Assembly (NCBI RefSeq): GCF_044324785.1
Contig: NZ_CP172127.1
From: Escherichia coli
Lineage (GTDB): Bacteria > Pseudomonadota > Gammaproteobacteria > Enterobacterales > Enterobacteriaceae
Length of the DNA: 64,000 nucleotides
Reading direction: 5' to 3' (one strand)
The stretch's first letter is position 1, and each line of letters starts with the position of its first letter. The notes beneath the pieces are model-generated. The model ran no database searches and had not been told where the DNA came from. It was given only the letters and a program-made list of their open reading frames with translations. Positions 6,188 through 33,791 of this stretch are shown here, piece after piece. The position numbers and the translations under genes were made by a program.

Positions 6188-9540
<3,353 letters not shown>

Positions 9541-9546
9541 GTGCGG

Positions 9547-9975
9547 TTAATCTCCCGTAAGTGGAACTAACAGCACATCGACCTCACTTGAGGCAATCAC
9601 TCTTTTCGCCGAGCAGGATGCTCGCGAAAAGAAACTGTGATTGTGATTACCGCAAATCACCAAATCGAAATGATATTTGCGACAAACTTCCAGAATATGT
9701 TCGCTTAACTCACCGTAGGCAATAAACGTCTTGTCAACGGGATACCCCGCATCCTGAATTAACTTATCAAGAAAGCTTTGCGTTTCTTCCTGCATCACGC
9801 TGCGTAAATCTTCAAGCATCGGCGCAGCTAATTGATTGTACATTTCCGGGTCGGAAGCGAGAGTAATTAAACTGATGTGTCCCTTTACTGGCCTGGCGAT
9901 AGATACCGCTTTTGCCAGCAGTTGCTGACTTTCCGGTGTAACCGCAACGGCGACAAGAATATTGCTATAGCTCAT
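9547..9975 (-). CDS. uspC: Universal stress protein UspC
   Basis: ORF track 142 aa; Usp-family sequence; synteny. Confidence 0.9.
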   Translation of the reverse strand: MSYSNILVAVAVTPESQQLLAKAVSIARPVKGHISLITLASDPEMYNQLAAPMLEDLRSVMQEETQSFLDKLIQDAGYPVDKTFIAYGELSEHILEVCRKYHFDLVICGNHNHSFFSRASCSAKRVIASSEVDVLLVPLTGD

Positions 9976-10755
9976 AACCTGTTCCTTATTCTGTGAACTT
10001 CAGGTGACATTAAAGCTTTACTCCTAATGGAGAAACGACGCAATCCCAACTCAGTCAAACAGGTAAATATTAGTCTGATTATTAGTAAAGACAATTAATC
10101 AATCACTCTCGGTGATCATATGATTTCAACTGTAATTATAAGAAAATAATGTACTGATTCTCCATATTAAACAAGTGGTTAATATATGTAAAACATTTTA
10201 TTAACATTAAGTTGATTGTTGCCTTTCTTTGTATTTAATTAGTTTGTTGTGCGGTAAGTGTCTGTTTAAAAATAGCTTATCTGGTATTGCATTAAAGCAA
10301 TTATTTATAGCAGATGATTATTTACGGTGAGTTATTTTAACTGTGCGCAACATCCCATTTCGATTATTCCTGTTTCATTTTTGCTTGCTAGAGTCGCGAA
10401 AAACTTTTTAACAGATTGAAATACACCCAAAACAAAAGTATGACTTATACATTTATGTTAAGTAATTGAGCGTTTTGTGTGATCTGTATCACACATTATT
10501 GAAAATCGCAGCCCCCCTCCGTTGTATGTGAGTGTAGTGACGAGTAAAGTTGCGTCGATTTAGGAAAAATCTTAGATAAGTGTAAAGAACCCCTTCTATT
10601 TGTAAGGACTTATTGAATCCCAAAAAGGGGCTCTGCCTGTTGCAGCTTATCGCAACTATTCTAATGCTAATTATTTTTTACCGGGGCTTCCCGGCGACAT
10701 CACGGGGTGCGGTGAGACCGCATAAAAATAAAGTTGGTTATTCTGGGTGGGAATA

Positions 10756-11106
10756 ATGCATACCTCCGAGTTGCTGAAACACATTTATGACATCAACTTG
10801 TCATATTTACTACTTGCACAGCGTCTGATTGTTCAGGACAAAGCGTCCGCAATGTTTCGTCTCGGCATAAATGAAGAAATGGCGACAACGTTAGCGGCAC
10901 TGACTCTTCCGCAAATGGTTAAGCTGGCAGAAACCAATCAACTGGTTTGTCACTTTCGTTTTGACAGCCACCAGACGATTACTCAGTTGACGCAAGATTC
11001 CCGCGTTGACGATCTCCAGCAAATTCATACCGGCATCATGCTCTCAACACGCTTGCTGAATGATGTTAATCAGCCTGAAGAAGCGCTGCGCAAGAAAAGG
11101 GCCTGA
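10756..11106 (+). CDS. flhD: Flagellar master regulator subunit FlhD
   Basis: ORF track 10747..11106; start MHTSELLKH (116 aa). Confidence 0.95.
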
Positions 11107-11108
11107 TC

Positions 11109-11687
11109 ATGAGTGAAAAAAGCATTGTTCAGGAAGCGCGGGATATTCAGCTGGCAATGGAATTGATCACCCTGGGCGCTCGTTTGCAGATGCTGGAAAG
11201 CGAAACACAGTTAAGCCGCGGACGCCTGATAAAACTCTATAAAGAACTGCGCGGAAGCCCACCGCCGAAAGGCATGCTGCCATTCTCAACCGACTGGTTT
11301 ATGACCTGGGAACAAAACGTTCATGCTTCGATGTTCTGTAACGCATGGCAGTTTTTACTGAAAACCGGCTTGTGTAATGGCGTCGATGCGGTGATCAAAG
11401 CCTACCGTTTATACCTTGAACAGTGCCCGCAAGCAGAAGACGGACCGCTGCTGGCATTAACCCGTGCCTGGACATTGGTGCGGTTTGTTGAAAGTGGATT
11501 ACTGCAACTTTCCAGCTGCAACTGCTGCGGCGGCAATTTTATTACCCACGCTCACCAGCCTGTTGGCAGCTTTGCCTGCAGCTTATGTCAGCCGCCATCC
11601 CGGGCAGTAAAAAGACGTAAACTTTCCCAGAATCCTGCCGATATTATCCCACAACTGCTGGATGAACAGAGAGTACAGGCTGTTTAA
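11109..11687 (+). CDS. flhC: Flagellar master regulator subunit FlhC
   Basis: ORF track 192 aa; Cys cluster C..C..C..C near C-terminus. Confidence 0.95.
11618..11644 (+). promoter_or_regulatory. Sigma28 (FliA) promoter inside the flhC 3' end: TAAACTTT-N11-GCCGATAT
   Basis: taaacttt (11618..11625), 11-nt spacer, gccgatat (11637..11644); close to the TAAAGTTT-N11-GCCGATAA consensus. Confidence 0.6.
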
Positions 11688-11745
11688 CTGATACGGTGTG
11701 GCGCAACATTCCAGCAGCGGTAACGACGTACCGCTGCTTTTTTTT
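11650..11745 (+). ncRNA. motR: Probable MotR sRNA (motA 5' UTR-derived, sigma28-dependent), ending at the terminator after flhC
   Basis: Sigma28 promoter at 11618..11644 and terminator at 11714..11745 define a transcript of about 95 nt overlapping the flhC stop; matches my recollection of MotR; ends not mapped. Confidence 0.45.
11714..11745 (+). terminator. Rho-independent terminator downstream of flhC (stem gcagcggta / taccgctgc, 8 T)
   Basis: Read directly from sequence. Confidence 0.8.
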
Positions 11746-11813
11746 GCCCCAATCGCGCGTTAACGCCTGACGACTGAACATCCTGTCATGGTCAACAGTG
11801 GAAGGATGATGTC

Positions 11814-12697
11814 GTGCTTATCTTATTAGGTTACCTGGTTGTTCTCGGTACAGTTTTCGGCGGTTATTTGATGACCGGTGGAAGCCTTGGAGCACTCTAT
11901 CAACCCGCTGAACTGGTGATTATTGCCGGTGCAGGGATTGGGTCATTTATCGTCGGCAATAATGGCAAAGCGATTAAAGGCACGCTGAAGGCGCTGCCGT
12001 TGCTGTTTCGTCGCTCCAAATACACCAAAGCAATGTATATGGATCTGCTGGCTCTGCTTTATCGGTTGATGGCGAAATCGCGGCAGATGGGGATGTTTTC
12101 GCTGGAACGTGATATTGAAAATCCCCGTGAGAGCGAGATCTTCGCCAGCTACCCACGCATCCTTGCGGATAGCGTCATGCTTGATTTTATCGTCGATTAT
12201 CTGCGTCTGATTATCAGCGGTCACATGAACACCTTCGAAATCGAAGCCCTGATGGATGAAGAGATTGAGACGCACGAAAGCGAGGCAGAAGTCCCGGCGA
12301 ACAGTCTGGCGCTGGTCGGGGACTCACTTCCGGCGTTTGGTATTGTCGCGGCTGTGATGGGGGTCGTTCACGCGTTAGGTTCAGCCGATCGTCCTGCCGC
12401 CGAGCTGGGGGCGCTTATCGCACATGCGATGGTGGGGACTTTCCTCGGTATTTTATTGGCTTACGGATTTATATCTCCATTAGCGAGTGTTTTACGTCAG
12501 AAAAGCGCCGAAACCAGCAAAATGATGCAATGCGTCAAAGTCACACTGCTTTCTAATCTGAACGGTTACGCACCGCCTATCGCCGTTGAGTTTGGTCGCA
12601 AAACGCTCTATTCCAGCGAACGTCCATCGTTTATTGAACTGGAAGAGCATGTGCGTGCGGTGAAAAATCCGCAACAACAGACGACAACCGAGGAAGC

Positions 12698-12701
<4 letters not shown>
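11814..12701 (+). CDS. motA: Flagellar motor stator protein MotA
   Basis: ORF track 295 aa. Confidence 0.95.
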
Positions 12702-15593
<2,892 letters not shown>

Positions 15594-16203: not shown

Positions 16204-16230
16204 TAAAGTTTCCCCCCTCCTTGCCGATAA
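16204..16230 (+). promoter_or_regulatory. Sigma28 (FliA) promoter of the tar-tap-cheRBYZ operon: TAAAGTTT-N11-GCCGATAA
   Basis: Exact consensus match, about 30 bp upstream of the tar start. Confidence 0.8.
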
Positions 16231-28945: not shown

Positions 28946-29701
<756 letters not shown>

Positions 29702-29747
29702 TTTTTACCGTTGCATCATGTCGCCCAATATGATGCTTGCTCGTACC

Positions 29748-29781
29748 AGGCCCCTGCAATTTCAACAGGGGCCTTTTTTTA
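29748..29781 (+). terminator. Rho-independent terminator after cutC
   Basis: Stem aggcccctg / caggggcct followed by TTTTTTT. Confidence 0.8.
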
Positions 29782-33692: not shown

Positions 33693-33791
33693 GCCTGATG
33701 CGCTATGCTTATAAGGCCTACATAGTCCCTGCAATATATTGAATTAGCAAGATTTTGTAGGCCGGATAAGGCGTTCACGCCGCATCCGGCA
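33693..33791. repeat. REP/BIME element between convergent torZ and cmoB
   Basis: gtaggccggataaggcgttcacgccgcatccggca is a near-consensus REP; a second degenerate unit lies upstream. Confidence 0.7.

Follow-up and report, generated by a model that had tools for sequence, protein, structure and literature searches.

We are practically certain that positions 11618-11745 of the window, the whole 64,000-nt stretch of Escherichia coli DNA analysed here, are the motR locus of E. coli. MotR is already known and published, and is not a new feature. The elements of the locus and its surroundings are the following, with numbering in nucleotides (nt) of MotR where indicated.

11109..11687, + strand: flhC coding sequence, 192 codons (from the ORF list); its final ~70 nt hold the promoter and its final 37 nt are MotR nt 1-37
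11618..11625, + strand: -35 element of the sigma-28 (FliA) promoter, TAAACTTT, in flhC codons 170-173
11637..11644, + strand: -10 element of the sigma-28 promoter, GCCGATAT, overlapping FlhC Ala177-Asp178
11651..11745, + strand: MotR sRNA, 95 nt, from A11651 to the end of the U8 tract, placed by alignment to K-12 motR (b4828)
11655..11662, + strand: candidate antiterminator 5' strand CUGCUGGA, MotR nt 5-12, in flhC codons L183-L184-D185; contains the MotR* site
11696..11699, + strand: MotR seed triplet G46-U47-G48 plus nt 49, the M1 site according to primer SM467; the seed is intact (GTG at 11696-11698)
11710..11717, + strand: candidate helix 3' strand UCCAGCAG, MotR nt 60-67; nt 63-67 are part of the terminator left arm, nt 60-62 lie outside the stem
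11713..11738, + strand: intrinsic terminator hairpin, stem nt 63-72 / 79-88, loop nt 73-78
11738..11745, + strand: U8 tract, the termination signal; T6-T9 across the Enterobacteriaceae and Erwiniaceae loci (best 80 of 588 loci)
11746..11813, + strand: rest of the motA 5' UTR, present solely in read-through transcripts
11814..12701, + strand: motA, GTG start, first gene of the class 3 motAB-cheAW operon, expressed via read-through

Identity of the flhC-motA junction with motR

The E. coli K-12 RefSeq record (NC_000913.3) annotates the ncRNA motR (b4828) at 1977208-1977302 on the minus strand, with a length of 95 nt and overlapping the 3' end of flhC. It aligned to 11651-11745 of the window with 94/95 identity, the one substitution being at nt 49. 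The RNA lies at the flhC-motA junction, on the strand that encodes flhC, and overlaps the final 37 nt of that gene. Its +1 is set by the cloning primer SM001 of Melamed et al. 2023 (PMC10578931) at ACAACTG / ACAACTGCTGG, which corresponds to 11651 of the window. In that study, a MotR of ~95 nt from the motA 5' UTR was lost in a delta-fliA strain and enriched in Hfq co-immunoprecipitates. The MotR promoter, located in the flhC coding sequence, is common to motAB-cheAW, with longer bands representing terminator read-through.

The original prediction had placed a near-consensus FliA promoter in the final 70 bp of flhC, which agrees with a motif at 11618-11644 and a gene end at 11687. The length it expected, about 95 nt, was exact, and the comparison it proposed with published MotR coordinates gave the same 5' and 3' ends as the annotated K-12 RNA (11651-11745). 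Its naming of the RNA as MotR was borne out by the b4828 alignment, the primer-defined +1 and the published fliA-dependent, Hfq-bound RNA, and driving of motAB-cheAW from the same promoter by read-through is as published (Melamed et al. 2023, PMC10578931). Because annotation and published papers match, that earlier reading was right in every element and the feature is a known one. No result of the analysis speaks against the identification as MotR.

In the window, sigma-28 (FliA) RNA polymerase would recognise TAAACTTT-N11-GCCGATAT in the 3' end of flhC and start at A11651. Part of the sigma-28 transcripts would stop at the hairpin and U8 tract (11713-11745), giving the 95-nt Hfq-binding MotR. 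The remaining ones would read through and become motAB-cheAW mRNA. From its position, the same terminator would also end flhDC (class 1) transcripts. Sequence identity, coordinates, motif significance, terminator strength and cross-species conservation come from this analysis; fliA dependence, Hfq binding and targets come from the K-12 literature.

Genes around the locus are ordered otsA (8107-9540), uspC (minus strand, 9547-9975), flhD, flhC, motA, motB and cheA, on the plus strand unless stated. The window's named locus, otsA-uspC-flhDC-motAB-cheAW, also includes cheW. At a threshold of at least 95% identity, 5376/5426 complete E. coli genomes matched 11400-11900, with flhC and motA annotated there. 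For the non-K-12 E. coli matches listed, RefSeq/PGAP annotates just flhC and motA at the locus. Rfam 15 has no MotR family, either at the gathering threshold or at E values up to 10; matches to mir-283, P31 and snoR9 at the locus were regarded as noise. With no Rfam family and no annotation among the non-K-12 matches listed, MotR is effectively visible only in the K-12 record, and the main value of finding it in the window is the correct annotation of a published sRNA. No motA, flhC or coordinate entries were found in the available supplementary Term-seq data from Adams et al. 2021 (PMC7815308).

The sigma-28 promoter inside flhC

The motif TAAACTTT-N11-GCCGATAT at 11618-11644 has two mismatches to the consensus TAAAGTTT-N11-GCCGATAA. 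Three sigma-28 sites with at most three mismatches were found in the 64 kb, compared with 0.53 expected, and a count of three was reached in 1/100 shuffles. One of the other two sites is the tar promoter (16204-16230), a perfect consensus match. An identical 28-mer, TAAACTTTCCCAGAATCCTGCCGATATT, is the FliA ChIP-seq site assigned to (flhC)motAB-cheAW by Fitzgerald et al. 2014 (PMC4183435), who reported motA RNA values of 302 in the wild type and 1 in delta-fliA. The promoter in flhC was later described as the most conserved FliA promoter, with its -10 element constraining the Ala-Asp motif of FlhC at Ala177-Asp178 (Fitzgerald et al. 2017/18, 10.1101/188474).

The initially transcribed sequences of the motA and tar sigma-28 promoters share 'CAACT' alone. 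With n=2, this comparison neither supports nor excludes a possible sigma-28-specific constraint on the initially transcribed sequence.

The terminator

The sequence AGCAGCGGTA-ACGACG-TACCGCTGCT, followed by T8, was the top-ranked terminator in a scan of 10000-13000. Its stem (11713-11722/11729-11738) has 10 bp, 6 of them GC, and closes a 6-nt loop. The hairpin begins 26 nt past the flhC stop codon, and the U-tract ends 58 nt past it. It appeared in both the MFE and the centroid structure of the RNA 11652-11745. From general knowledge of Hfq-dependent sRNAs, we take the U8 tract (11738..11745) to be the putative 3' Hfq-binding tail as well.

The strong 8-T terminator had been predicted at 11714..11745, which was right to within 1 nt, the stem starting at 11713. 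The accompanying statement that protein-coding annotation alone does not explain this terminator calls for one qualification. From its position and orientation we infer that flhDC operon (class 1) transcripts naturally end there too, and so it is explicable without an sRNA. What matters is that class 3 transcription has to pass through it.

Conservation across Enterobacterales

An FlhC-anchored scan of a genome collection yielded 588 loci, and the best 80, from Escherichia out to Yersinia, Serratia and Dickeya, were analysed. Six peptides were used for the search; one of them (QNPADIIP) overlaps the promoter and five do not. The sigma-28 motif was present in every intact locus of the best 80, with 13-15/16 matches and a spacer of 11, and the distance from the start of the -35 element to the end of the flhC stop codon was exactly 69 nt in each of them. 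Two loci fell outside the intact set: in L015 the flhC frame was mis-called, with promoter and terminator present, and L068 is a frameshifted Enterobacter cloacae flhC.

All Enterobacteriaceae and Erwiniaceae loci among the best 80 of 588 had a hairpin of -15 to -21 kcal/mol followed by T6-T9. The predicted RNA measured 91-96 nt in these loci, except for one Pantoea locus with 115 nt. In Pectobacterium, Brenneria, Dickeya, Serratia and Yersinia the promoter was unchanged, the downstream hairpin was unrelated and the U-tract was weak or absent. The same combination of a kept promoter, an unrelated hairpin and a weak or absent U-tract was found in Edwardsiella, Rahnella, Chimaeribacter, Proteus, Xenorhabdus and a Hafniaceae-like contig. 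A promoter found everywhere, with a U-tract terminator in only part of the loci, suggests that the promoter is order-wide and that the putative MotR-type sRNA module is restricted to Enterobacteriaceae and Erwiniaceae.

From the loci, 65 distinct MotR-length sequences were aligned. The terminator stem was paired in 97.6% of the alignment cells. Compensatory changes were found in the 3 loop-proximal terminator pairs, and the lower seven to eight pairs were almost invariant. The RNAalifold consensus of the full-length alignment was the terminator. Two segments were near-invariant: MotR nt 2-19 and …UCCAGCAGCGG…, which includes U60-C61-C62, outside the terminator stem. The sequence between these segments and that of the loop were variable.

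In flhC, synonymous-codon entropy averaged 1.15 bits over 50 distinct 192-codon genes. Zero entropy was found at codons 8, 9, 167-168, 170-172, 177-178, 182-185 and 187, with 0.14 bits at codon 169 and 0.15 bits at codon 186. Codons 167-168 and 170-172 are located upstream of and within the -35 element, codons 177-178 in the -10 element, and codons 182-187 in MotR nt 2-19. The zero or near-zero entropy at codons 182-187 indicates that the 5' segment of MotR is constrained beyond protein coding.

A candidate antiterminator helix

MotR nt 5-12 (CUGCUGGA) and nt 60-67 (UCCAGCAG) can form 8 contiguous pairs, which take in 5 bases of the terminator left arm. The predicted helix 5-12/60-67 and the terminator 63-72/79-88 are mutually exclusive, nt 63-67 being common to both. 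In addition to the MotR identity, we tentatively consider that this predicted antiterminator sets the MotR:motA ratio and explains the accumulation of the MotR* variant, a possibility that we hold to be somewhat doubtful. Co-transcriptional pairing of nt 5-12 with nt 60-67 would then let a fixed fraction of the sigma-28 transcripts read into motA. On transcripts from the flhDC promoter, the 5' strand would be taken by ribosomes or by upstream flhC RNA, and termination would be efficient. Such a choice between folds, by flhC ribosomes or upstream flhC RNA, is proposed from the geometry and from folds with upstream context.

Comparative data lend this proposal some weight. The helix was pairable in 99.4% of cells for the 65 distinct sequences, compared with 13-75% for slid controls. 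It was the sole RNAalifold consensus structure in a blind run in which the alignment was cut before the right arm of the terminator. U60-C61-C62 lie outside the terminator stem and yet are nearly invariant, and synonymous entropy is zero in flhC codons 182-185 and 187 and 0.15 bits in 186, against the gene mean of 1.15. Lineages without the CCAGCAGCGG terminator vary at synonymous sites in the 5' segment. One compensatory change, G11:C61 to A:U, was present in two related Cedecea-like sequences, at the cost of the non-synonymous substitution D185N in FlhC. However, 5/8 pairs never vary among the 65 sequences, the covariation amounts to one evolutionary event and one wobble, and the RNAalifold covariation term was 0. 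In Pectobacterium, Dickeya and Brenneria, CAACUGCUGGAUGAACAG is retained and the partner strand is missing, and in E. albertii the helix is broken (P=0.04). Additional covariation was sought through FlhC proteins varying at residues 182-187, which gave six loci: a QLLNEQ metagenome contig, Edwardsiella, Rahnella, Chimaeribacter, Proteus and Xenorhabdus. No further compensatory changes were gained from these six, all of which had kept the promoter, with unrelated hairpins and no U-tracts; they are uninformative for covariation and show co-occurrence only.

Folding in silico points in the same two directions. In single-sequence folding, the helix was the MFE structure (P=0.97) at nascent lengths of 67-82 nt, and gave way to the terminator only once the RNA had reached 88 nt. 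In the full-length RNA the terminator was ahead by 3.2 kcal/mol for the window allele or 3.8 kcal/mol for the K-12 allele. Once the upper 5 bp of the hairpin had formed, closing the lower stem gained -2.8 kcal/mol (window) and -3.1 kcal/mol (K-12), compared with -11.4 kcal/mol in MotR*. A helix probability of at least 0.8 was predicted for 63/65 species sequences. When at least 60 nt of upstream flhC RNA was included, the helix was no longer predicted (P about 0.02), and this modelled loss suggests a promoter-specific behaviour even before ribosomes are considered. On the other side, when nt 1-59 were shuffled, the left arm was sequestered as strongly as observed in 9/500 cases and with P>=0.9 in 66/500, and therefore the helix is favoured, not extraordinary. 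According to findpath, refolding of the alternative structure into the terminator faces a barrier of just 6-8 kcal/mol, which means that strand displacement may be fast.

The MotR* variant, TGC(6-8) to GAG, was introduced as 'a more abundant derivative identified by chance', and no mechanism for its abundance was offered in that paper (Melamed et al. 2023, PMC10578931). The mutation removes the predicted helix (P about 0.1). According to the primers of the same study, the insert of pZE-MotR continues beyond the native terminator as far as the motA start. Termination efficiency therefore affects the abundance of the 95-nt RNA from this construct, and stronger termination would raise it. MotR* abundance could instead come from stability or from Hfq binding.

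On balance, the folding models and alignments make it conceivable, at rather less than even confidence, that MotR nt 5-12 (FlhC L183-L184-D185) act as an antiterminator strand against the MotR/flhDC terminator. A literature search found no paper describing an attenuator or antiterminator in MotR, and the candidate helix may be a new element at motR. If it is real, one hairpin would be an efficient stop for translated flhDC transcripts and a tunable, leaky stop for sigma-28 transcripts starting at +1, and the same nucleotides would be under a three-way constraint from protein codons, antiterminator and terminator arm. This would explain the frozen flhC codons 182-187 and terminator left arm in Enterobacteriaceae and Erwiniaceae, the conservation of the FlhC QLLDEQ motif within a variable tail, and the over-accumulation of MotR*. 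It would further account for the division of sigma-28 transcription between a regulatory RNA and motor/chemotaxis mRNA, and for the use of one terminator by two promoter classes. Fitzgerald's observation that RNA/DNA signals constrain the FlhC protein sequence would thereby be extended.

MotR function and a seed-adjacent polymorphism

In K-12, MotR uses a seed around nt 46-48 to base-pair within the fliC and rpsJ coding sequences, and RIL-seq chimeras of MotR with both RNAs were recovered (Melamed et al. 2023, PMC10578931). MotR overexpression raised fliC mRNA, S10 protein and flagella number. The seed mutant MotR-M1 carries GTG(46-48) changed to CAC. With motR-M1 on the chromosome, the RNA level was unchanged, and cells had fewer flagella, lower motility and lower class 2 promoter activity (Melamed et al. 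2023, PMC10578931). Both fliC and rpsJ are located outside the window.

These data bear on a rival account of the locus, in which the hairpin is merely the flhDC terminator, the promoter serves motA only and the 95-nt RNA is a non-functional, leaky by-product. The terminator, 26 nt past the flhC stop, is oriented as expected for ending flhDC transcripts. Outside Enterobacteriaceae and Erwiniaceae, the promoter is kept and the U-tract terminator is not, and therefore the primary conserved role of the promoter is motA expression. However, the published Hfq co-immunoprecipitation and the RIL-seq chimeras with fliC and rpsJ speak against a mere by-product, and the motR-M1 phenotypes at unchanged RNA level largely refute it. 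In addition, the 65-sequence alignment showed a GUGUGG seed block conserved across Enterobacteriaceae amid an otherwise variable segment. We consider this account very unlikely and rejected it, chiefly on the motR-M1 phenotypes. A chance sigma-28-like motif next to a hairpin, with no transcript starting at 11651, is more improbable by far: consensus scans by themselves are no proof of function, but FliA ChIP-seq on the identical 28-mer, fliA-dependent RNA on northern blots and mapped 5' ends have been published, and the promoter position was conserved in every intact locus examined, so that this explanation was rejected on the ChIP-seq, transcription-start and northern data.

Position 11699, MotR nt 49, is T in the window and A in K-12, directly 3' of the M1 seed triplet. 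E. albertii, the further E. coli lineages that were sampled and the other genera keeping the GTGTGG block also have T49. The exact MotR allele of the window was present in 582/5376 complete genomes, including O157:H7, and the exact K-12 allele in 2897/5376. The K-12 A49 is the derived state and U49 the ancestral one, because U49 is found in E. albertii and the other genera with the GTGTGG block. We infer that the T49 allele of the window behaves like the K-12 allele. As it differs from K-12 beside the seed triplet, target strength could differ; other E. coli, including the window and O157:H7, keep U49, and target strengths from K-12 may not transfer to them. Both this polymorphism and the antiterminator helix are by-products of the analysis that could matter to specialists.

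Comparison with known systems

The window agrees with MotR of E. coli K-12 (b4828; Melamed et al. 2023, eLife 12:RP87151) in locus, promoter 28-mer, +1, length and terminator. It differs in having U49 in place of A49, with the seed GUG 46-48 intact. The sRNAs UhpU, FliX and FlgO are, like MotR, FliA-dependent, Hfq-binding and UTR-derived, and act on the flagellar regulon (Melamed et al. 2023, PMC10578931). They originate from 3' UTRs, whereas MotR is a 5'-UTR product of premature intrinsic termination. Unlike them, MotR shares the promoter of the downstream operon and overlaps the coding sequence of the upstream gene.

StxS (Shiga-toxin PR' leader, PMC7547250) and RhlS (rhlI 5' UTR, PMC6786874) are 5'-UTR sRNAs reported to arise by early termination, and resemble MotR in that one promoter gives a short regulatory RNA and a longer mRNA, partitioned by an intrinsic terminator. 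Their genes, organisms and regulators differ from those of MotR. For StxS, phage Q antitermination decides between the two products, and we know of nothing comparable for MotR.

The trp and pyrBI leaders are classical terminator/antiterminator attenuators. They would resemble motR only if the candidate helix acts as proposed: in the folding model, one strand is common to two mutually exclusive helices, of which the upstream one forms earlier, and the fold could be selected by translation of an overlapping ORF. Unlike in trp and pyrBI, there is no leader peptide at motR; ribosomes would instead be translating the 3' end of full-length flhC. The choice of fold at motR would, moreover, depend on the promoter of origin.

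Other features of the region

A 45-aa antisense ORF at 11644-11781 was regarded as a chance ORF, because it overlaps the terminator and the flhC end. In the rest of the motA 5' UTR (11746..11813), a hairpin predicted by folding between CAUCCU (11779-11784) and AGGAUG (11803-11808) covers the motA Shine-Dalgarno sequence. This part of the UTR showed no change between E. coli and E. albertii, and the Shine-Dalgarno and start region of motA was conserved across genera.

Nucleotide 49 of MotR

The 95-nt sRNA MotR, encoded at the flhC–motA junction, differs from its K-12 counterpart only at nucleotide 49 (window position 11699), which is U in the window and A in K-12. U49 lies directly 3′ of GUG 46–48, the published MotR seed triplet. 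Because the other examined genera that keep the GTGTGG block have U at this position, the A49 of the experimentally characterised K-12 MotR is, from this comparison, the derived allele.

Constraint on flhC upstream of the −35 element

Just 5′ of the −35 element of the MotR promoter, the synonymous sites of flhC codons 167–170 (GTA AAA AGA CGT, 11607–11617) were frozen, with only codon 169 varying (synonymous entropy, 0.14 bits). As these sites upstream of the −35 octamer are also frozen, the conserved promoter signal seems to reach past the canonical octamer. Elsewhere in flhC, synonymous variation between genera was absent only at codons 8–9 (11130–11135), close to the flhD stop/flhC start junction.

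Variation at the flhC–motA junction in other genomes

The flhC–motR–motA junction was unmatched in 50 of the 5426 complete E. coli genomes of the collection, and two matches were on records classed as plasmids. In the catheter isolate E. coli 20Y000092 (NZ_CP138217.1), an 11-bp deletion (TGCTTTTTTTT), aligned to window positions 11735–11745, removes part of the right arm of the terminator and the entire U-tract; it should abolish both the discrete MotR and flhDC termination. In strain B20123, the terminator tract is interrupted (TTTCTTTT). Enterobacter cloacae DSM 26481 (NZ_CP056117.1) has a promoter spacer of 10 nt instead of the usual 11, and its FlhC reading frame runs to 203 codons, consistent with one 1-bp deletion causing both a frameshift of the FlhC tail and mis-spacing of the motA promoter.

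Predicted folds of the motA leader

One hairpin was predicted by folding in the read-through motA leader:
11770–11815, + strand, hairpin in which CAUCCU (11779–11784) pairs with AGGAUG (11803–11808)
It is predicted to mask the Shine–Dalgarno sequence of motA together with part of its GTG start codon. Between E. coli and E. albertii, 11770–11815 does not vary; the Shine–Dalgarno region is kept across genera. In a Hafniaceae-like contig (UUGCUC-AAU-GAGCAA) and in Edwardsiella (CUUGCUC-GGU-GAGCAAG), the sigma-28 transcript starts with ~20 nt that form a local palindromic 5′ hairpin. Both are made of flhC codons and, as read from the sequence, are a different RNA-level use of that coding segment.

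Other sigma-28 sites and RNA genes in the window

Two further sigma-28 (FliA) sites and one overlapping RNA family match were located:
16204–16230, + strand, perfect-consensus sigma-28 promoter upstream of tar, TAAAGTTT-N11-GCCGATAA
16137–16214, − strand, C0465, Rfam family match (97.7 bits)
8384–8411, − strand, intragenic FliA site in otsA, a published site found in the window
C0465 lies on the strand opposite to the tar promoter, where it overlaps both the −35 end of this promoter and the terminator of cheW. The otsA-internal site, listed by Fitzgerald 2014 (PMC4183435), carries a single −10 change in the window (GCCGATAA to GGCGATAA), by which it is probably weakened in this strain.

The uspC–flhD intergenic region (9976–10756) is without an insertion sequence, whereas MG1655 has IS1H there. 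The remaining RNA genes were found by alignment (AsflhD) or at the Rfam gathering threshold (the other two):
~10557–10777, − strand, K-12 antisense RNA AsflhD (b4839), aligned; window and K-12 differ by several substitutions and a single 1-nt gap
29473–29780, + strand, MicL sRNA (368 bits)
33714–33755, − strand, ES036/CssrF (47.7 bits)
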